Source: a virus
Taxonomy: Duplodnaviria > Heunggongvirae > Uroviricota > Caudoviricetes
DNA: 8,429 nt
Strand: one strand, 5' to 3'
IMG/VR virus record: IMGVR_UViG_3300029590_000173
Coordinates: 1-8,429 of that record
Shown here: positions 1 to 8,429 of the stretch, one piece after another
Layout of the letters: each line of letters opens with the position of its first letter
How positions within the stretch are numbered: position 1 is the first letter of the stretch
The notes under the pieces: model-generated
Seen by the model: only the letters and a program-made list of their open reading frames with translations
What the model was told of the DNA's origin: nothing
Database searches by the model: none
Made by a program: the position numbers and the translations under genes

Positions 1-17
1 AAGTTGGCAGCATCACC
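1..17 (-). mobile_element. Terminal 17 bp of a second IS1 copy (left inverted repeat, reverse-complemented); the body of that copy lies upstream of the window
   Basis: Bases 1-17 (AAGTTGGCAGCATCACC) are the exact reverse complement of bases 2473-2489 (GGTGATGCTGCCAACTT), the left end of the complete IS1 in this window. Only 17 bp are visible, so full versus solo end cannot be decided. Confidence 0.7.
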
Positions 18-288
18 CGAAATCACTTCATCAAGCACGTGTGTTGATGAGTACTTCAGGATCGGGTCGACGATCAAAACTGACCGGGTAATAGAACTGG
101 ATGGGGTAACTTACCCATATGTTACAATTGACGTTTCTTCTAAGTCGCATCCGTTCTATACAGGCAAACTGAGAACTGTTGCTTCAGAAGGTAATGTTGC
201 ACGCTTTACCCAGCGTTTTGGGCGTTTTGGGCGTTTTGGGCGTTTTGGGCGTTTTGGGCGTTTTGTTGATGCGAAAAAAGGCGGCTGA
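18..288 (+). CDS. rpmE2: 50S ribosomal protein L31 type B (RpmE2/YkgM-like), 3' fragment with a C-terminal (GRF)n expansion; 5' end abuts the IS1 end
   Basis: The translation ...[62 protein letters not shown]...KKGG matches my recollection of the non-zinc L31 paralog YkgM over about 65 residues. The stop is TGA at 286-288. The frame stays open back through the IS1 end to base 1, so the true start is not in the window. No rpmJ2/ykgO-like gene follows. Confidence 0.75.
214..265 (+). repeat. Perfect tandem repeat of the 9-bp unit CGTTTTGGG, 5 full copies plus a 7-bp partial copy, in frame within the L31B coding sequence
   Basis: Counted directly: units at 214-222, 223-231, 232-240, 241-249 and 250-258, then CGTTTTG at 259-265. 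The repeat encodes RFG/GRF repeats. Confidence 0.95.
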
Positions 289-589
289 TTTCGCCGCAAA
301 GGTGCGTTTGACAATTTTAAAACGGACCGGACAGAGAGAGCCTGCACCTGAATATACTGAGGTAGCCCGTCCCTCCGGGGCGTGCAGATGATCCCGTCAC
401 CAGAAGATTGCGGACCTCTCTGAAAACCAGTACATTACGCGCGGGTGCCTTTCGGCTGACGGCTGGAAGGATTACCTGAAGGCCGGATGTGGAAAGGCCC
501 CGGAAAACATCTCTGTTTAGCCGAGGCCCTAATCTACATACCTTTAGCAAGTAGAAGGTTAGCGCCTCTTTGAAAAAGGAGCAAGCGCT

Positions 590-730
590 ATGCCGCAAAA
601 AACGATCATCGTGAGCATTTTATGCTTAACCATGTTGTTGACCGTCTGGATGATACATCGTTCACCATGTGAATTCAGACTTAACATCATGTGGTCAGAA
701 TTTGCGGCGTTCTTGCAGTGTAAACCGTAA
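590..730 (+). CDS. Small hydrophobic protein (46 aa), Hok/Gef-family-like type I toxin candidate
   Basis: The ORF ATG 590 to TAA 728-730 was not in the supplied track because it is below the length cut-off. Translation: MPQKTIIVSILCLTMLLTVWMIHRSPCEFRLNIMWSEFAAFLQCKP. AGGAG at 577-581 sits 8 nt before the ATG. It has one N-terminal transmembrane segment followed by R-S-P-C-E-F-R and S-E-F-A-A-F, which resemble the Hok motifs R-K-x-L-C-E-I-R and E-V-A-A-F as I recall them. A GC-rich hairpin and an intrinsic terminator follow. Confidence 0.5.
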   Translation: MPQKTIIVSILCLTMLLTVWMIHRSPCEFRLNIMWSEFAAFLQCKP

Positions 731-824
731 GAAACCGCAGCGGGGGTGAAAGCCCCCGCTATCCGGTTGCCGAAGGTTCGGTCGAAAGCCGCACCCGTGC
801 ATGCAAGTGACAAAGAAAAAACAA

Positions 825-858
825 AGCCCGCAGCGTAAAAACTGCGGGCTTTTTTATT
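825..858 (+). terminator. Rho-independent terminator downstream of the hok-like ORF
   Basis: Stem AGCCCGCAG (825-833), loop CGTAAAAA, stem CTGCGGGCT (842-850), followed by TTTTT-ATT. Confidence 0.65.
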
Positions 859-896
859 CACATACCGAAGGTGTGGTAACTGCCTGGGTTCAGACC

Positions 897-921
897 AAAA
901 AAAGCCCCATAAAATGGGGCT
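897..921 (-). terminator. Rho-independent terminator for leftward (minus-strand) transcription, convergent with the plus-strand terminator
   Basis: On the minus strand: AGCCCCA, loop TTTTA, TGGGGCT, then TTTTTTT (the plus strand shows an A-run at 897-903). It lies about 300 nt downstream of the minus-strand operon end at 1217. Confidence 0.55.
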
Positions 922-1067
922 GAAGATTCTGTAAGGAATTTCACAGCAATGAGATTCTAGTCTCTTCCAATGATATATGAGTCTTCAGCCTGAATCAATG
1001 GGGCATGACTGTGAATCCACCGACGATCAAAACTTGCACAATGCCTGAAGTTGAGTTAGAAAAGTAC

Positions 1068-1128
1068 CGGGCGCGATATCCGGTTTATTTTTTGTTGCTG
1101 TGTTTTGCCTCGTGCCGGATATCGCGTC
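1068..1128. repeat. Imperfect 15-bp inverted repeat (GGGCGCGATATCCGG ... CCGGATATCGCGTCC) separated by a 31-nt T-rich spacer
   Basis: Arms at 1068-1082 and 1114-1128 are reverse complements at 14 of 15 positions. Each arm contains GATATC. Function unknown; possible large hairpin or protein-binding site at the GC/AT transition. Confidence 0.5.
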
Positions 1129-1216
1129 CACCGTCTTTCTGATGATTCTTATGAAATCGTACTTTATTGATTTACTGCCATCCTGGTTTGTCTTTTTATG
1201 TTCATTATTGCGACAG

Positions 1217-1612
1217 TCATTTCCTGTTTCTGGTGATGTTTTGATAAAAGTGAAAGAATAAAACGATCATTGCAGAAGGTATTGCTAAAACCATACATAT
1301 CATTATATAAACAAGATGAAAATGATATATACCATAAGACCAGAAAAAAGGTTTTTTCCAGAATGATATGGATGTGTATTTTAGTGTAATTGTTTTTGTC
1401 AGGTATATTGAACAAGGAAGAGCCAGGCCACTGAGTATCAGAAATAAGTCAACTTTTATCGATGCTTCTGTTGGTGTGTCATATATAAGATGCAATATGG
1501 ATATTATAATGGGGCACATTCCCCACAGGATATTTTTGAAATAGAATTTCCGGTTCATATGTTTATGCTCTTTGGTTTTATCCCGGGAATTGGCGCTTTG
1601 TTTTTTATTCAT
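1217..1612 (-). CDS. Hypothetical multi-pass membrane protein (131 aa, about 3 predicted transmembrane helices), low-GC, second gene of a two-gene operon
   Basis: Track ORF. The start overlaps the stop of the upstream ORF by 8 nt (ATG at 1612-1610 versus stop at 1607-1605). Hydrophobic stretches include ILWGMCPIIISILHLIY, VDLFLILSGLALPCSIYL and YGIYHFHLVYIMICMVLAIPSAMIVLFF. An alternative start at the internal Met (codon 18) is possible. No family recognised. Confidence 0.55.
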   Translation of the reverse strand: MNKKQSANSRDKTKEHKHMNRKFYFKNILWGMCPIIISILHLIYDTPTEASIKVDLFLILSGLALPCSIYLTKTITLKYTSISFWKKPFFWSYGIYHFHLVYIMICMVLAIPSAMIVLFFHFYQNITRNRK

Positions 1613-2276
1613 GAACGTTTTCGTTGTTTAATAACCATGGGGTATTATGATTATCCTTTATTTTTGATATGTAATTGTCAATAGTGGATTTCGTTTCATT
1701 ATTGTGGTTATAGTAATCATGAAGAGTGCAAAACACATCATCTTTTATTGTGGCGATTAATGGGGCTTGTGTGAGGGTAAAATATAAAGAACGATTACTT
1801 AGTGTCCTGAAATAAATTTTTTCGCCAATGACCAGATCGGTGTTCATTATATTGTAGCCTATTTCAAATATATTGTTTGATGGCATGTGTAATACATATG
1901 TGGGGTATTTGTTGTGTTTTTTCATTAAATAATAAATAAAATCAGATACAGGCATCTGTTTTAGTTTTTTTTGCATCTTCCTTATGTGTTGTGACATTAA
2001 TATCATTTTCGAGAGAATGCATAAGAGACTAAACAAGAGATTAAATACTATGTTCAGTACTATCAGAGTAACAAACAGGCCAATGCTCCTTAGCGCTGAA
2101 AATATATTGTCATTGTAAATATACTGGAATGTATATCCGGCTGATAAAAATGCCAATATATATAACACTATGTCTGTTTTATTTCGCTTTTTTATTTTGT
2201 AGGTTATTGCTGATTTTAAGAATAAGATGGCAATAAGAGCAGTGATAACCCAGAAAAATATAACGGAAACTTCCAT
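1605..2276 (-). CDS. Hypothetical membrane protein (223 aa): three N-terminal transmembrane helices plus a ~130-aa Asn/Lys/Tyr-rich soluble C-terminal domain; low-GC; first gene of the operon
   Basis: Track ORF. ATG at 2276-2274 with a weak AAGG upstream. Transmembrane segments around residues 3-20, 36-54 and 65-88. GC content is about 28%, against roughly 50% in the flanking DNA. No family recognised. Confidence 0.6.
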   Translation of the reverse strand: MEVSVIFFWVITALIAILFLKSAITYKIKKRNKTDIVLYILAFLSAGYTFQYIYNDNIFSALRSIGLFVTLIVLNIVFNLLFSLLCILSKMILMSQHIRKMQKKLKQMPVSDFIYYLMKKHNKYPTYVLHMPSNNIFEIGYNIMNTDLVIGEKIYFRTLSNRSLYFTLTQAPLIATIKDDVFCTLHDYYNHNNETKSTIDNYISKIKDNHNTPWLLNNENVHE

Positions 2277-2326
2277 AATTATACCTTTATCGTGTTTTCA
2301 GGGAGGTAATTTATCATTGTGCTGAT

Positions 2327-2346
2327 ATGCATGTAAATACATGCAT
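2327..2346. promoter_or_regulatory. Perfect 20-bp palindrome ATGCATGTA-AA-TACATGCAT, 51-70 bp upstream of the 223-aa membrane-protein gene; candidate operator in its promoter region
   Basis: The 9-bp arms are exact reverse complements with a 2-bp spacer. It lies in the 196-bp AT-rich gap between the ORF start (2276) and the IS1 left end (2473). Confidence 0.45.
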
Positions 2347-2527
2347 TATCTGTTTCTTATATTCTTTTTATGAAGTTACTGATTAATTTATATTAAAACA
2401 ACACATTCATAATGAAATCAACATGTTCATATGGTTGACGGCAGATTTCTCTTTTTGTTAACCTGCATCTGCGGTGATGCTGCCAACTTACTGATTTAGT
2501 GTATGATGGTGTTTTTGAGGTGCTCCA

Positions 2528-2803
2528 GTGGCTTCTGTTTCTATCAGCTGTCCCTCCTGTTCAGCTACTGACGGGGTGGTGCGTAACGGCAAAAGCACCG
2601 CCGGACATCAGCGCTATCTCTGCTCTCACTGCCGTAAAACATGGCAACTGCAGTTCACTTACACCGCTTCTCAACCCGGTACGCACCAGAAAATCATTGA
2701 TATGGCCATGAATGGCGTTGGATGCCGGGCAACCGCCCGCATTATGGGCGTTGGCCTCAACACGATTTTCCGCCATTTAAAAAACTCAGGCCGCAGTCGG
2801 TAA
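2528..2803 (+). CDS. insA: IS1 InsA protein (transposition inhibitor and N-terminal part of the InsAB' transposase)
   Basis: The 91-aa translation [43 protein letters not shown]... is the canonical InsA with its zinc-finger Cys motifs. Confidence 0.95.
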
Positions 2804-3225
2804 CCTCGCGCATACAGCCGGGCAGTGACGTCATCGTCTGCGCGGAAATGGACGAACAGTGGGGATACGTCGGGGCTAAATCGCGCCAGCGCTGGCTGTT
2901 TTACGCGTATGACAGGCTCCGGAAGACGGTTGTTGCGCACGTATTCGGTGAACGCACTATGGCGACGCTGGGGCGTCTTATGAGCCTGCTGTCACCCTTT
3001 GACGTGGTGATATGGATGACGGATGGCTGGCCGCTGTATGAATCCCGCCTGAAGGGAAAGCTGCACGTAATCAGCAAGCGATATACGCAGCGAATTGAGC
3101 GGCATAACCTGAATCTGAGGCAGCACCTGGCACGGCTGGGACGGAAGTCGCTGTCGTTCTCAAAATCGGTGGAGCTGCATGACAAAGTCATCGGGCATTA
3201 TCTGAACATAAAACACTATCAATAA
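2722..3225 (+). CDS. insB: IS1 InsB reading frame (expressed as the InsAB' transposase by a -1 frameshift at the A6C site)
   Basis: The track ORF translation ...[44 protein letters not shown]... is canonical IS1 InsB. The frameshift site lies at 2779-2785. Confidence 0.9.
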
Positions 3226-3240
3226 GTTGGAGTCATTACC

Positions 3241-3586
3241 TGAAGCGTTAATGCATGATGCAACAGAAGCGTATTGCCAGGACATCCCTGCTCCACTGAA
3301 ACGCCTTCTTCCTGACTATAAACGGATGGAAGAAAAAATAGACGCCGTAATCCGTGAGAAATACGGGTTACCTCCTGTTATGAGCACGCCAGTGAAATAT
3401 GCCGATCTCATTATGCTGGCAACCGAACGTCGCGATCTCGGGCTTGATGATGGCTCTTTCTGGCCTGTACTGGAAGGTATCCCGGCGACAGAGATGTTCA
3501 AAGTTATTCCACTGTCACCAGGCCATGCCTACGGGATGTTTATGGAACGTTTTAACGAGTTATCGGAGTTACGCAAATGCGCATGA
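3241..3586 (+). pseudogene. 3' remnant of an HD-domain phosphohydrolase-like prophage gene, decapitated by the IS1 insertion
   Basis: The reading frame runs uninterrupted from inside the IS1 right end, and the apparent start at 3227 is IS1 sequence. The remaining translation begins PEALMHDATEAYCQDIPAPLKRLLPDY..., which carries an HD-type metal-binding motif (H-D-x-x-E-x-x-x-x-D-I-P). The N-terminal half is missing. Confidence 0.5.
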
Positions 3587-3939
3587 ATGTTTTCGAAATG
3601 GAAGGGTTTCTTCGCGGGAAATGTGTACCACGAGATCTGAAAGTGAATGAAACAAATGCTGAGTACCTGGTACGTAAATTCGATGCGCTTGAAGCTAAAT
3701 GTGCGGCACTGGAAAACAAAATAATACCAGTGTCAGCTGAACTGCCGCCAGCAAATGAAAGTGTTCTGTTATTTGATGCTAACGGAGAAGGCTGGCTAAT
3801 TGGCTGGCGTTCTCTCTGGTACACCTGGGGACAAAAAGAAACCGGAGAATGGCTGTGGACATTTCAGGTCGGGGACCTTGAAAACGTCAATATCACTCAC
3901 TGGGCAGTAATGCCGAAAGCACCGAAGAATAAAAAATGA
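3577..3939 (+). CDS. Prophage protein with a C-terminal Trp-rich domain resembling DUF551
   Basis: Track ORF with GGAG 8 nt upstream; it overlaps the previous stop. The C-terminus GEGWLIGWRSLWYTWGQKETGEWLWTFQ...ITHWAVMPKAPK fits the Trp-rich phage domain I recall as DUF551 (ending THWMPLP-like). Confidence 0.5.
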   Translation: MRMNVFEMEGFLRGKCVPRDLKVNETNAEYLVRKFDALEAKCAALENKIIPVSAELPPANESVLLFDANGEGWLIGWRSLWYTWGQKETGEWLWTFQVGDLENVNITHWAVMPKAPKNKK

Positions 3940-4139
3940 GCGTGATAAAAACTCATACAGGAATTGTTATCACCCGAGACGGTCCGCAGGTAAAAAAACT
4001 GCACCAGACAAAGCGGATGTGGGTCGTCGGAAAAAACGAGTTTTACCACAAAGAAACCGGACGCCGCCACTTTGCAGAAAATACTCGCCGCCGACTGCTG
4101 ATCGATACCATCAAGCCTATCGAGGTGAAGCATGTTTAA
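3936..4139 (+). CDS. Hypothetical prophage protein (67 aa)
   Basis: Track ORF. Its ATG overlaps the upstream stop (ATGA), typical of translationally coupled phage operons. No family recognised. Confidence 0.4.
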   Translation: MSVIKTHTGIVITRDGPQVKKLHQTKRMWVVGKNEFYHKETGRRHFAENTRRRLLIDTIKPIEVKHV

Positions 4140-4371
4140 ACAGAACGAAAAATCTATCGCTCAAATTGCTGAGTATATCCCGCGTGCGTGCCGGGATATG
4201 CAGTTGCAGGAAGCCAAAGCACGCCTGGAGAAAAAAATTGCGCTCTATATCGATGACGGCTGTGATGCCGCCGTTCTTAACGCGGCGTTCGCGCCAGCTC
4301 TTAACAGTCATACGCGAAAGTCTTTTTTTTCGTGCATCGCAGCGCAGATCCGTAAAGGAGGCAACCAGTGA
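4132..4371 (+). CDS. Hypothetical prophage protein (79 aa)
   Basis: Track ORF. Its start overlaps the upstream stop (ATGTTTAA) and its stop overlaps the next gene's GTG start. No family recognised. Confidence 0.4.
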   Translation: MFKQNEKSIAQIAEYIPRACRDMQLQEAKARLEKKIALYIDDGCDAAVLNAAFAPALNSHTRKSFFSCIAAQIRKGGNQ

Positions 4372-4967
4372 GCAACATTAACTATCAGGTACTGCGTGAA
4401 AAGGCAGAGAAAGCAACTAAAGGAAGCTACATCGTAGGGCATACATCTGTTAACCAACACGGCAATTTAACAGGAGTTTTTGTTTGTCAAAAATGGAAAG
4501 GAGAACCCGGTGGCGTAATTGCAGAATGTCACGTTAACTGCCTGGTTGAAACAGATGCTCAGGCTTATGCAAACGCTGAATTCATAGCAGAGGCTAACCC
4601 GGCTACCGTGCTGGCACTGCTGGATGAACAGGAAAGAAACCAGCAATACATCAAACGCCGCGACCAGGAGAACGAGGATATTGCGCTAACGGTAGGGAAG
4701 CTGCGCGTTGAGCTTGAGGAGACAAAATCAAAACTCAACGAGCAGCGCGAGTATTACGAGGGAGTTATCTCTGATGGGTGCAAGCGTATTGCTGAACTGG
4801 AAGCGCGGGAAGTTCAATTACCGACTCGCTACGACCTTCGATATGGACACCCGATAAATGCAGATGAGCGACAAGTCATGATACCTAAAGAAAATGGCAG
4901 TTGGCTTTACCTGATTGACCTAGAACACGCATTACGCGTCGCTGACATTCGCATCAAAGGAGAGTGA
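4368..4967 (+). CDS. Ead/Ea22-like prophage accessory protein (199 aa)
   Basis: GTG start with a strong AAGGAGG 6 nt upstream. The N-terminus MSNINYQVLREKAEKATKG... and the central coiled-coil region match my recollection of lambdoid Ead/Ea22-like proteins encoded between int/xis and the recombination genes. Confidence 0.55.
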   Translation: MSNINYQVLREKAEKATKGSYIVGHTSVNQHGNLTGVFVCQKWKGEPGGVIAECHVNCLVETDAQAYANAEFIAEANPATVLALLDEQERNQQYIKRRDQENEDIALTVGKLRVELEETKSKLNEQREYYEGVISDGCKRIAELEAREVQLPTRYDLRYGHPINADERQVMIPKENGSWLYLIDLEHALRVADIRIKGE

Positions 4968-4968
4968 T

Positions 4969-5484
4969 ATGGCGTTAACACACCACGAACTCTGTCAGAT
5001 TGCGTACAAGTTCCTTAAGCGCAACGGGTTCAAGGTTTGCTTTCATGACCGCTTTGTTGCTGTAACCAGTACCGGAGAACAGCCAGATGCTATGGGATTC
5101 AGAAATTCAGCATCATGCCTGATAGAGGCGAAGTGTTCTCGTGCTGACTTGTTGGCAGATAGAAAAAAGCGTTTCCGTAAAAATCCCTCACTTGGCATGG
5201 GCGACTGGCGATTCTTTATTAGTGAGCCGGAAATTATTTCAGTTGAGGATTTACCTCCCGGCTGGGGATTACTTCACGTTGTTAACGGAAGAGTACGGAA
5301 AGTACATGGATGGCCCAGGGGTAATTGCTGTTGGGGTAATCCTGACGATAAGCCATTTACTGGGAATAAGCAGGTTGAATGCGATTACATGTTATCTGCA
5401 TTAAGGCGCATGGAGTTGAGAGGGCACCTTAATGAAATATATGACGGTGTGATTGTTAATAAGAAAGAAGGAAACGCGGCATGA
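4969..5484 (+). CDS. Hypothetical prophage protein (171 aa); possible PD-(D/E)xK nuclease fold
   Basis: AGGAG 6 nt upstream; starts 1 nt after the Ea22-like stop. The sequence contains ...GEQPDAMGF...CLIEAKCSRADL..., which is compatible with a PD-x(n)-E-x-K catalytic motif. This is a motif-level inference only. Confidence 0.35.
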   Translation: MALTHHELCQIAYKFLKRNGFKVCFHDRFVAVTSTGEQPDAMGFRNSASCLIEAKCSRADLLADRKKRFRKNPSLGMGDWRFFISEPEIISVEDLPPGWGLLHVVNGRVRKVHGWPRGNCCWGNPDDKPFTGNKQVECDYMLSALRRMELRGHLNEIYDGVIVNKKEGNAA

Positions 5485-6239
5485 TCACTATTACCAAAGG
5501 GCGACTGCTGACAATCAAGCAGTGGCGCGAAACATACGGACCGGGTAGCAACGTTGTACTGCCAGCAGAAGAAGCGGAAGAACTGGCACGAATTGCTCTG
5601 GTATCGCTGGAAGCAGAGCCGGTGGCAAAGATTATAGCTCATTACCCATTAGGAGTTGACGTAGGCAAACAAAAGTTCGTACAGGCCATTGGAGAGCTTC
5701 CTGACTTTGGCGGATATCTATTTGCCGCCCCGCCAGCGCCGGTAGTGCCGGAAGAAGCAACTCCGGAAAACGTAGAAATGCTCTCTGGCTATGTTTCCAC
5801 GTACAAATTAACCGATAGCGAGCGCGATATTGCTGCCGAAATATGGAACGCCTGCCGCACCGCCATGCTTCAGTCCGGAAACTTTCGGGAAAGCAAGAAT
5901 TCGTCAACCAATAATTTTCGGGAAATCCCGGAAGCGTCAACCAGCTCTCCGGTAACTCCGGCTCTTCTGCCTGGTGGTTTCACCATTGAGGAGGCGAAGG
6001 AATTACATGAAGACCTGGTACGCAGCCACATAAGCAAGGCCTTAAGTGGCGAAAAGATGAAAAAGAAAGATCGCGATGCTGATTTGCGCTGGATTCATGG
6101 CGTTATAGTTCAGGCAGCGTGGTTTGTAAAAGCATCACTGGAGCAGAATGCACTATCGGGCAACTCTCCGGTAACTCCGGATGGTTGGATAAGCTGTAGT
6201 GAGCGAATGCCGGACGACAGGCAGGAGGTGAATCAATGA
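5481..6239 (+). CDS. Hypothetical prophage protein (252 aa) with internal short repeats and a C-terminus that looks like the start of a DUF551-type domain
   Basis: ATG overlaps the upstream stop (ATGA) with GAAGGA upstream. It contains exact 17-bp direct repeats at 5945-5961 and 6164-6180 (encoding SPVTP) and ends ...SPVTPDGWISCSERMPDD before the stop at 6237-6239. Confidence 0.5.
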   Translation: MITITKGRLLTIKQWRETYGPGSNVVLPAEEAEELARIALVSLEAEPVAKIIAHYPLGVDVGKQKFVQAIGELPDFGGYLFAAPPAPVVPEEATPENVEMLSGYVSTYKLTDSERDIAAEIWNACRTAMLQSGNFRESKNSSTNNFREIPEASTSSPVTPALLPGGFTIEEAKELHEDLVRSHISKALSGEKMKKKDRDADLRWIHGVIVQAAWFVKASLEQNALSGNSPVTPDGWISCSERMPDDRQEVNQ

Positions 6240-6319
6240 GCTGGCCTGATGCAATCGTAACTCTGGGGGTGGTATTCGCAGCAGCGTTTGTTGTGTTCTC
6301 GATTTGTCGATGGGGATAA
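6236..6319 (+). CDS. Small single-transmembrane peptide (27 aa, MSWPDAIVTLGVVFAAAFVVFSICRWG); candidate host-targeting small membrane peptide
   Basis: Not in the track because it is short. AGGAGG at 6222-6227 sits 8 nt before ATG 6236. The ATG overlaps the upstream stop (ATGA), and the stop TAA at 6317-6319 lies 4 nt before the next ATG (6324). Confidence 0.4.
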   Translation: MSWPDAIVTLGVVFAAAFVVFSICRWG

Positions 6320-6323
6320 CCAC

Positions 6324-6566
6324 ATGTTCGCTTTGATTCAACGCGGTCAGATATACACGGACAGAGCCGGATACCCCGTGGTGATTACTCGCATCACTGA
6401 GCACTCAGTGTTCTTTCGACGGGTGGACGGACGATCCGGGCGGGTACGCATTGGTGAGTTAAACTGCCTGTTCGAACATATTGACCACCAGGAGTACCGC
6501 AAAATTCTCGCGGACACTGAGCAGGAAAAGCACCTGAAAAAATTACGAGCCATAAAAAGGAAGTAA
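6324..6566 (+). CDS. Hypothetical prophage protein (81 aa from ATG 6324; the track's TTG start at 6288 is less likely)
   Basis: Track ORF 6288..6566. The ATG at 6324 follows the small-peptide stop by 4 nt. Translation: MFALIQRGQIYTDRAGYPVVITRITEHSVFFRRVDGRSGRVRIGELNCLFEHIDHQEYRK... No family assigned with confidence. Confidence 0.45.
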   Translation: MFALIQRGQIYTDRAGYPVVITRITEHSVFFRRVDGRSGRVRIGELNCLFEHIDHQEYRKILADTEQEKHLKKLRAIKRK

Positions 6567-6569
6567 AGA

Positions 6570-6704
6570 ATGAATAAAGCATTTGAACGATGGGTCCACC
6601 AGCGTTACGGCAATCACTATGACCTGACGCGAGATGTTGATGGCTTCTACTGTCGTGAAGTTGTGAAGCGAATGTTTGAAATGTGGTGCCACTGCCGTGG
6701 ATGA
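6570..6704 (+). CDS. Small Cys/His-containing protein (44 aa, MNKAFERWVHQRYGNHYDLTRDVDGFYCREVVKRMFEMWCHCRG)
   Basis: Not in the track because it is short. AAGGAAG lies about 7 nt upstream, and the ATG is 4 nt after the previous stop. C-x(13)-C-H-C could be a metal-binding knuckle. Weak call. Confidence 0.3.
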   Translation: MNKAFERWVHQRYGNHYDLTRDVDGFYCREVVKRMFEMWCHCRG

Positions 6705-6722
6705 AAGTTTTATGAGGTTGGC

Positions 6723-6977
6723 ATGCAGACAATCATCTATCAGATAACCCCCAGCAAATGGTGTACGGAGAGAGTCCTTATTGCATCAACAGGGCTAAAG
6801 CCCGGCACCATCGAGCGGGCCAGAAGAAAGTCATGGATGCAGGGAAAAGAATACCGCCATTACGCTGTAGAAGGTGATCCTGGGCATTACAGTGAATGCC
6901 TGTACAACATCGAAGAAATTATGCGATGGATCGAAAACCAGAAACAACCAGGTGCCAAAAATGCAAGTTCCGGTTAA
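6723..6977 (+). CDS. xis: Excisionase-like (Xis) protein, 84 aa
   Basis: It sits immediately upstream of int and is co-oriented with it, the canonical xis position. The N-terminus MQTIIYQITPSKWCTERV... resembles the putative-excisionase family of enterobacterial prophages as I recall it. Confidence 0.5.
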   Translation: MQTIIYQITPSKWCTERVLIASTGLKPGTIERARRKSWMQGKEYRHYAVEGDPGHYSECLYNIEEIMRWIENQKQPGAKNASSG

Positions 6978-7010
6978 CCTGTTAATGCTCCTGGACGTCT
7001 GGGAGGTTTA

Positions 7011-8315
7011 ATGAGTAACGTATCATACCCGACAGGCGTTGAAAACCATGGAGGATCACTCCGTATATGGTTTCACTATAATGGCAAACGTGTCAGAGAA
7101 AACCTCGGTGTTCCTGACACCGCCAAAAACCGGAAGATCGCAGGTGAACTTCGCACTTCCGTTTGTTTTGCAATCAGAATGGGGAGTTTCGACTACGCTA
7201 CACAGTTCCCTAATTCCCCTAACCTGAAACACTTTGGTCTGGGAAAAAGAGAGATAACCGTTAAGGCACTTTCGGAAAAATGGTTGGACCTTAAGAAAAT
7301 TGAGATTTGTGCGAATGCACTTAATCGTTACCAGTCAGTAATTAAAAACATGTTGCCTATGTTGGGTGAGAAAAAACTGGTTTCATCCATAACAAAAGAG
7401 GATTTACTTTTCGCAAGGAGAGATTTGTTGACCGGTTACCAAAAGCTTTCTAATGGAAAGATTTCTTCCATAAAAGGGCGCTCAGTGGTCACAGTAAACT
7501 ACTATATGACAACCATAGCTGGAATGTTTCAATTTGCAACAGATAATGGTTATACCTCAGGAAACCCATTTAACGGTCTGGCCCCCTTAAAAAAGTCCAA
7601 GGTAAAACCAGATCCTCTCACCCGTGACGAATTTATTCGTTTTATTGAGGCTTGCCGTCATCAACAAACAAAAAACCTGTGGATTCTCGCTGTATACACG
7701 GGTATTCGTCACGGGGAGCTGGTATCGCTGGCATGGGAAGATATAGATCTTAAAGCAAGGACTATAACCATCCGTAGGAATTATACAAAACTTGGCGAAT
7801 TCACTCCACCAAAAACCGATGCTGGCACCGGAAGGACAATTCATCTGGTTCAACCAGCTATTGATGCTCTTAAAAGTCAGGCGGAAATGACCATGCTTGG
7901 AAAGCAACATTCTGTAGAGGTAAAGCAGAGGGAATATGGGAGAAGNNNNNNNNNNNNNNNNNNNNNNNNNNNNNNNNNCACTTTTGTTTTTAGTCCTCAG
8001 GTAATAAAACAGCGGCAGTTTTCCGGACCGCACTATAAGGTTGACTCCATCAGGGAGTCATGGACAAGTATCTTAAAACGCGCAGGTCTGAGACACAGAA
8101 AATCGTACCAATCCAGGCATACTTATGCATGCTGGTCACTTGCCGCTGGAGCTAATCCTAGTTTTATCGCAAGCCAGATGGGCCACACAAACGCACAAAT
8201 GGTATTCAATGTTTACGGAGCATGGATGAAAGACAACAATCACGAACAGATAGAACTCCTTAACAAAAGACTATCTGAAAGTGTCCCATGTATGCCCCAT
8301 AAGAAAGCTGGGTAA
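7011..8315 (+). CDS. int: Phage integrase, tyrosine site-specific recombinase (lambda Int family); the reading frame spans a 33-N gap
   Basis: GGGAGG Shine-Dalgarno before ATG 7011. The C-terminal catalytic region carries ...LAVYTGIRHGELVSLAWEDIDL... (Arg box) and ...HTYACWSLAAGANPSFIASQMGHTNAQMVFNVYGAWM... (H-x-x-R ... Y motifs). Ns at 7946-7978 fall inside the gene. Confidence 0.9.
   Translation: MSNVSYPTGVENHGGSLRIWFHYNGKRVRENLGVPDTAKNRKIAGELRTSVCFAIRMGSFDYATQFPNSPNLKHFGLGKREITVKALSEKWLDLKKIEICANALNRYQSVIKNMLPMLGEKKLVSSITKEDLLFARRDLLTGYQKLSNGKISSIKGRSVVTVNYYMTTIAGMFQFATDNGYTSGNPFNGLAPLKKSKVKPDPLTRDEFIRFIEACRHQQTKNLWILAVYTGIRHGELVSLAWEDIDLKARTITIRRNYTKLGEFTPPKTDAGTGRTIHLVQPAIDALKSQAEMTMLGKQHSVEVKQREYGRXXXXXXXXXXXXTFVFSPQVIKQRQFSGPHYKVDSIRESWTSILKRAGLRHRKSYQSRHTYACWSLAAGANPSFIASQMGHTNAQMVFNVYGAWMKDNNHEQIELLNKRLSESVPCMPHKKAG
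7946..7978. other. Run of 33 N (assembly gap or masked bases) inside the integrase gene
   Basis: Seen directly. Because 33 is a multiple of 3 the frame appears preserved, but the true length and content are unknown. Confidence 0.99.
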
Positions 8316-8360
8316 AATAAAAACTTGCAAAATCAATTAGTTTACCCTTAATCCCTGTCA
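8316..8360. other. Prophage-chromosome junction (attL-type) region between the integrase stop and the resumption of mlrA-like sequence
   Basis: Position immediately 3' of int, and the point where the downstream frame begins to read as MlrA (about 8354). The exact core cannot be defined without the other junction. Confidence 0.35.
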
Positions 8361-8429
8361 CGTTACGCGCGTGGCAGAGGCGTTACGGATTGCTGAAACC
8401 GCAACGGACAGACGGCGGTCATCGGCTGT
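8354..8429 (+). pseudogene. mlrA: Fragment of the MerR-family curli regulator gene mlrA (yehV), helix-turn-helix region; its 5' end is replaced by prophage sequence and it runs off the window
   Basis: The in-frame translation [25 protein letters not shown] matches the MlrA N-terminal HTH region as I remember it ([42 protein letters not shown]...). The upstream in-frame codons ([11 protein letters not shown]) do not match and contain no start codon back to the stop at 8318-8320. Confidence 0.6.

Follow-up and report, generated by a model that had tools for sequence, protein, structure and literature searches.

A probable attL junction of a lambdoid prophage splitting the curli regulator gene mlrA (yehV)

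Genes and features of the window

The window analyzed here, positions 1-8,429 of IMG/VR record IMGVR_UViG_3300029590_000173, ends in a fragment of the curli regulator gene mlrA (yehV). To the left of this fragment lie a short phage arm, genes for a tyrosine integrase and an excisionase, a run of prophage accessory genes, a complete IS1 copy, and a segment of foreign DNA that begins at a second, inverted IS1 end (Table 1).

Table 1. Coordinates of the features in the window
Feature	Coordinates	Strand	Remarks
Second IS1 end, inverted	1-17	-	17-nt match to the IS1 inverted repeat
Integrative and conjugative element (ICE) piece, 2455 bp	18-2472		L31 paralog, Hok/Gef ORF, two unknown ORFs; not prophage DNA
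L31 paralog	near window start		5' end cut by IS1; Pfam Ribosomal_L31
Hok/Gef-family ORF, 46 aa	590-730		Pfam HOK_GEF
Two AT-rich ORFs	1217-1612 and 1605-2276	-	without Pfam matches
IS1, 768 bp	2473-3240	+	23-nt terminal inverted repeats at 2473-2495 and 3218-3240; abuts truncated yfdR
Early-left accessory genes	3241-6722	+	yfdR 3' fragment (5'-deoxynucleotidase), DUF551, Ead/Ea22-like, DUF4222, small ORFs (Pfam)
Excisionase gene xis	6723-6977	+	Pfam DUF1233 putative excisionase (2e-29)
Tyrosine integrase gene int	7011-8315	+	Pfam Arm-DNA-bind_2 (3.4e-24) and Phage_integrase (9.8e-18); transcribed toward the junction
Phage arm, 38 bp	8316-8353	+	between the int stop codon and the core; in-frame TAA at 8318-8320 followed by 11 phage-derived codons
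Attachment core, 20 bp, CCTGTCACGTTACGCGCGTG	8354-8373		common to attP and attB; covers mlrA codons 17-23
Distal mlrA (yehV) fragment	8354-8429	+	codons 17-41, encoding the latter half of the MerR-type HTH; cut off by the window end

The int frame is open outside a 33-nt run of N (7946-7978), at which it may be interrupted, and ends 38 bp before the core. By BLASTP, its product is 96-97% identical to its relatives (419 of 434 aligned positions against JLK-2012 and 415 of 434 against VT1-Sakai), and most of the non-identities are 12 X and 6 gap positions at the N run. RM12579, G1/2, PhiR5_1, and JLK-2012 have 15 nt at this place, an 18-nt length difference that preserves the frame, and the run could reflect masking, a gap whose length has no meaning, or a genuine insertion of six codons. 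An xis or xisR gene is annotated at the same position in JLK-2012, VT1-Sakai, RM12579, and G1/2. Further to the left, the Ea22-like, DUF551, and DUF4222 genes are typical of a lambdoid early-left region, and the DNA from 3241 to the window end is 98.8-98.9% identical to mlrA-adjacent prophages in complete genomes such as G1/2. The yfdR gene (window 3227-3586) has been cut by IS1, leaving a 3' fragment with a weak YfbR-like match from profile position 61.

The junction within mlrA

The original prediction placed an integration junction inside mlrA and held that the last 76 bp of the window encode part of the helix-turn-helix (HTH) region of MlrA. Both claims were borne out. Positions 8354-8429 are identical to K-12 mlrA at 76 of 76 nucleotides, and their translation, obtained by reading the frame over 8258-8428, matches residues 17-41 of K-12 MlrA at 25 of 25 positions (PVTLRAW...GGHRL). 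The likeness to MlrA is not due to chance, given that 5403 of 5426 complete E. coli genomes were matched by a 450-bp query whose last base is 8429. From left to right, the junction consists of int, the phage arm, the 20-bp core, and then mlrA. The gene is disrupted at its 5' end, as predicted: codons 1-16 are absent at the junction, phage DNA stands in their place, and similarity to mlrA stops upstream of 8354, except for a TTAATCC with one extra C. The interval of 8316-8429 originally singled out thus contains the actual crossover region.

The identity of the core was established from annotated relatives. The VT1-Sakai record AP000400.1 annotates CCTGTCACGTTACGCGCGTG at the equivalent position as a misc_recomb feature, 'attachment site of Enterobacteria phage VT1-Sakai', and describes yehV as 'divided by the insertion of prophage'. 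In the JLK-2012 record (JQ347801), the annotated attL is a 21-bp sequence equal to window 8353-8373, which in RM12579 is found again at the far end of the prophage. Matches between the window and phage genome records end at 8354, 8372, or 8373. The sequence to the left of the core is phage sequence, while that to the right is bacterial, and strand exchange would have taken place somewhere within the core. The 38-bp phage arm matches the corresponding DNA of VT1-Sakai, JLK-2012, RM12579, and G1/2 exactly or with single substitutions and is unlike the 5' end of K-12 mlrA, in agreement with the claim that the in-frame codons upstream of the mlrA fragment derive from the phage.

Free phage DNA carrying attP would also contain the core, and phage records do match the window as far as 8372 or 8373. 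Beyond the core, however, the window (8374-8429) is chromosomal mlrA and not the P' arm of the phage (acgcaacatttttaaaaatcg...), and in complete genomes the same sequence continues into mlrA-yohO-yehW. These observations already refute the idea that the window represents attP or a chance HTH-like similarity rather than a chromosomal insertion, and we consider its probability negligible. Since the DNA to the right of the core is chromosomal mlrA rather than the other phage arm, the junction is assigned as attL, the int-proximal one, and on its sequence it appears to be the 'yehV left junction' of Shaikh and Tarr. Beyond 8429, genomes that share this exact junction carry the rest of mlrA through to the normal MlrA stop codon.

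The reciprocal junction could be viewed in the O55:H7 genome RM12579. There, the other end of the prophage consists of btsS, the mlrA promoter, an ATG followed by 22 codons, and then a TGA in the phage arm, which arises at the boundary between core and phage arm (RM12579 locus extract 7510-7578). At this attR, RM12579 has a C immediately before the core (AAC, Asn) where K-12 has a T (AAT), and with this C the direct repeat in RM12579 is 21 bp long. A lambdoid prophage of ~51 kb, without annotated stx, lies between the two junctions. We also located the published junction primers. Primer F of the left-junction pair lies at window 7826-7845, and primer B was found with one mismatch in mlrA of RM12579, where the distance between F and B is 824 bp, equal to the published F/B junction band of 824 bp (PMC3874044).

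Among the closest described systems is VT1-Sakai (Sp15), the Stx1 prophage of O157:H7 Sakai, whose 20-bp att core and its place within mlrA are identical to those in the window (AP000400.1). It shares the 38-bp arm except for single substitutions, as well as the order of xis and int and their orientation toward the junction. It differs in that its accessory genes are mosaic and its int-side region is only ~95% identical in nucleotide sequence, with 38% of the window covered. Unlike VT1-Sakai, the prophage in the window is interrupted by IS1 at 3241, and its late region, where stx would be located, falls outside the window. CP-933V, inserted in yehV (mlrA), is the EDL933 counterpart of VT1-Sakai. 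JLK-2012, from the O55:H7 strain DEC5E, is a non-Stx prophage, as are those found in mlrA in RM12579 and in the commensal G1/2. The int-xis module is shared, at 95-98% nucleotide identity, by BP-4795 (Stx1, AJ556162), YYZ-2008, PhiR5_1, and vB_EcoS_phi330, whose records end in or extend through the same core; these phages differ in their cargo and early-region genes and cover 29-44% of the window.

More generally, the arrangement resembles lambda-type Int/Xis recombination, in which attP and attB yield attL and attR. It has an arm-binding tyrosine integrase, an adjacent excisionase gene, an int gene oriented toward the attachment site, and a short core that is present in identical form at each end of the prophage (the ends were compared in RM12579). 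Many phages integrate at the 3' end of a tRNA or protein gene, which they restore. Here, in contrast, the core lies inside the 5' coding region of the host gene, and the gene is not rebuilt by the phage.

We consider it very probable that the junction is the attL of a lambdoid prophage of the VT1-Sakai/Sp15, CP-933V, BP-4795, and JLK-2012 integration type, which splits mlrA such that native MlrA is lost. The phage tyrosine integrase would have recombined attP with the identical 20-bp core in mlrA codons 17-23. The mlrA promoter, ribosome-binding site, and first 22 codons would thereby be left at the far prophage end, where a phage TGA closes the frame, as seen in RM12579, and codons 17-243 would be placed behind int. 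An mlrA-splitting prophage junction of this kind is already known and has been thoroughly published.

The IS1 boundary of the prophage

Contiguous prophage DNA extends 5.1 kb from the junction and ends at 3241 inside yfdR, where it meets IS1. The IS1 copy encodes ORFs of 91 aa and 167 aa, the sizes of insA and insB, whose hits are annotated as IS1 family transposase. Simple insertion of IS1 gives an 8-9 bp target duplication. We found no target duplication at IS1 2473-3240, where the flanks tgcatctgc and tgaagcgtt differ, which argues for a rearrangement or a composite structure rather than a simple IS1 insertion.

The segment on the other side of IS1 (18-2472) has counterparts of 99.0-99.9% identity in 13 complete E. 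coli genomes. The single context that we inspected, that of G1/2, places this stretch between conjugative-transfer/ICE genes. We had considered whether the L31 gene at the window start could be the chromosomal K-12-type ykgM and rejected this identification, as the closest relatives of the segment have conjugative-element genes around it. The C-terminus of the L31 paralog contains a perfect 9-bp tandem repeat of GCGTTTTGG (5.9 copies at 213-265) that encodes (GRF)n. G1/2 has three units (27 nt) fewer than the window, indicating that the copy number of GCGTTTTGG varies between strains.

Together, the complete IS1 and the inverted IS1 end bracket the 2455-bp foreign segment with both IS1 left ends facing inward, in a composite-transposon-like arrangement. 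A simple IS1-mediated deletion joining the conjugative element to the prophage was judged unlikely, as the two lie ~3 Mb apart and in the same orientation in G1/2. Given the inverted IS1 end at 1-17, a composite IS1 block would be a simpler reading than a deletion. Genomes of the RM12579, JLK-2012, and G1/2 type, unlike the window, carry neither IS1 nor the conjugative-element block beside yfdR. Neither IS1 junction occurred among the 5426 complete E. coli genomes, in which the only matches were two-piece ones over longer spans, to IS1 copies that happened to lie nearby, and we found no complete genome covering at least 80% of the window. The block could be an IS1 composite within a prophage that is complete in other respects, a remnant left by rearrangement, or an assembly chimera caused by the repeats.

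Which of these applies matters for the prospect of mlrA being restored by excision in spite of the IS1 break at 3241. With two copies of the core, precise Int/Xis excision would be expected to regenerate an intact mlrA, and the disruption may thus be reversible. Alternatively, the junction could be real while the prophage is a decayed or rearranged remnant, or the contig an IS1 chimera, in which case the disruption of mlrA would be fixed and not reversible by excision. The end of the prophage in yfdR, against an IS1 without a target duplication, is in keeping with this alternative, as are the conjugative-element piece and inverted IS1 end beyond that IS1 and the failure of either IS1 junction to appear in any of the complete genomes searched. 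Short non-Stx yehV prophages have also been documented, for example, one of 20 kb (PMC8309913). However, an IS1-flanked composite block inside a complete prophage would look identical within the window, and no break is seen in xis or, outside the N run, in int. We regard the remnant or chimera reading as a possibility of real weight that falls short of probable.

The distal mlrA fragment and curli regulation

In intact MlrA, residues 5-42 align with the MerR HTH profile, and the Pfam MerR/MerR_1 domain spans residues 4-72. The product of the distal piece matches only positions 14-38 of the 38 profile positions, with a score of 26.2 bits, below the Pfam cutoff of 28.2. Across distal MlrA products, the first 13-15 positions of the profile are missing, and the distal piece lacks the first helix and the first third of the MerR-type HTH. 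The distal products of genomes that share the junction exactly retain intact MlrA_helical and MlrA_C domains according to Pfam.

The original prediction further stated that no start codon lies upstream of the fragment. This is correct for canonical starts, as no ATG, GTG, or TTG occurs among the 11 codons between the TAA at 8318-8320 and position 8354, and an intact mlrA start codon or N-terminus, looked for at the junction, is absent. On direct reading, no Shine-Dalgarno-like motif is present in 8316-8353, and no promoter, ribosome-binding site, or ATG, GTG, or TTG start was found ahead of the distal mlrA piece in the window. RefSeq nonetheless uses ATT or ATC as a start. In RM12579, the split gene is annotated by PGAP as WP_029208472.1, a protein of 233 aa with an ATT start corresponding to window 8336 (extract 9357-10058), and in G1/2 as WP_042101647.1, a protein of 228 aa with an ATC start corresponding to window 8351 (extract 14039-14725). 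Both coding sequences are marked as non-pseudo and named 'HTH-type transcriptional regulator MlrA'. Because no Shine-Dalgarno-like motif precedes these starts and they differ between the two genomes, we take them as a probable artefact of homology-guided calling and not as evidence of translation.

The distal piece is thus without promoter, ribosome-binding site, canonical start, and first HTH helix, for which reason native MlrA cannot be made from it. MlrA-dependent activation of csgD, and hence curli and biofilm formation, would be lost or strongly reduced. The link between the insertion and this phenotype had been raised in the original prediction, and the literature exists as it stated: two papers report that prophage insertion in mlrA limits curli and biofilm formation in O157:H7 (PMC3874044, PMC5931665, both citing Uhlich et al. 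2013 Microbiology 159:1586). A prophage in mlrA was present in 53 of 55 O157:H7 strains and was associated with curli and biofilm deficiency (PMC3874044). By analogy with this published work, we infer a loss of curli and biofilm in the source strain. The phenotype would also depend on rpoS and on there being no second copy of mlrA. Some complete genomes show two places matching the 450-bp junction query, and the source genome could carry a second, intact mlrA elsewhere.

Loss of the native protein would not necessarily make the distal fragment silent. Our scan detected no promoter-like or terminator-like site on the + strand between int and the mlrA fragment, which is weak negative evidence. 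As no terminator separates the two, the fragment could plausibly be transcribed by read-through from the prophage, especially on induction. In published experiments, 'distal mlrA' was induced up to ~62-fold by SMX-TM (PMC5931665). An in-frame TTG (MlrA Leu29) is present at 8390-8392, with AGAGG at 8376-8380 and its GAGG nine bases upstream of the TTG, and translation of an MlrA fragment without the HTH could conceivably begin at this codon, should prophage transcripts extend into the region.

It follows that mlrA might still be functional, with an N-terminus encoded by the phage arm from the ATT at 8336 or the ATC at 8351, or with a restart at the TTG at 8390-8392, yielding by read-through from int a variant that acts on csgD or on MlrA partners. 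The non-pseudo PGAP coding sequences of 233 and 228 aa lie exactly at the junction, no terminator-like site intervenes, and the two C-terminal domains are retained in such products; run-off transcription has been reported, and recombinant distal fragments restored some Congo-red affinity, according to PMC5931665, which cites Uhlich et al. 2016. Against this, neither ATT nor ATC is preceded by a Shine-Dalgarno-like motif, the starts differ between genomes, and the beginning of the HTH profile is gone. The truncated proteins from run-off transcription, unlike the native factor, did not restore biofilm formation or raise csgD and were considered unlikely to bind DNA, including the promoter (PMC5931665). 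Deficiency in curli and biofilm has been described for strains carrying the insertion, which were tested by pUC19::mlrA complementation (PMC3874044). A functional variant is therefore very unlikely in our judgment, and loss of native MlrA is the reading that we retain.

A further idea, which we regard as improbable though a little less so than a functional regulator, is that the distal fragment is expressed only on prophage induction and that the resulting HTH-less MlrA, with its C-terminal domains, modulates the curli/c-di-GMP switch in trans, for example, by titrating MlrA partners. The IS1 rearrangement may in addition lock the arrangement in the present case. The notion of an induction-dependent distal MlrA has already been raised in the literature (PMC5931665), and this reading, even if true, would be only moderately new.

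To gauge the prevalence of the junction, we searched the complete E. coli genomes with the 450-bp query and counted a junction when the match covered at least 80% of the query. A junction of the mlrA-prophage type was present in 460 of 5426 genomes, and the 450-bp junction was 100% identical in at least 10 of them, including RM12579 and DEC5E. Exact 52-nt and 24-nt junction patterns had no match in a species-representative genome collection. Occupancy of the yehV site is a standard typing marker for O157 and other Shiga toxin-producing E. coli. In one survey, yehV was occupied in 96.5% of 346 O157 strains, with non-Stx prophages among the occupants (PMC8309913).

The importance of the junction lies mainly in correct annotation, and it opens no new question. 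Surveys of mlrA integrity based on annotation alone would miss the insertion in the ~8% of complete E. coli genomes that carry it. They would be misled because RefSeq gives the distal piece the ordinary MlrA name and a start at ATT or ATC. As long as the prophage does not excise, a strain carrying the junction would be expected to lack MlrA and to form curli-dependent biofilm poorly.
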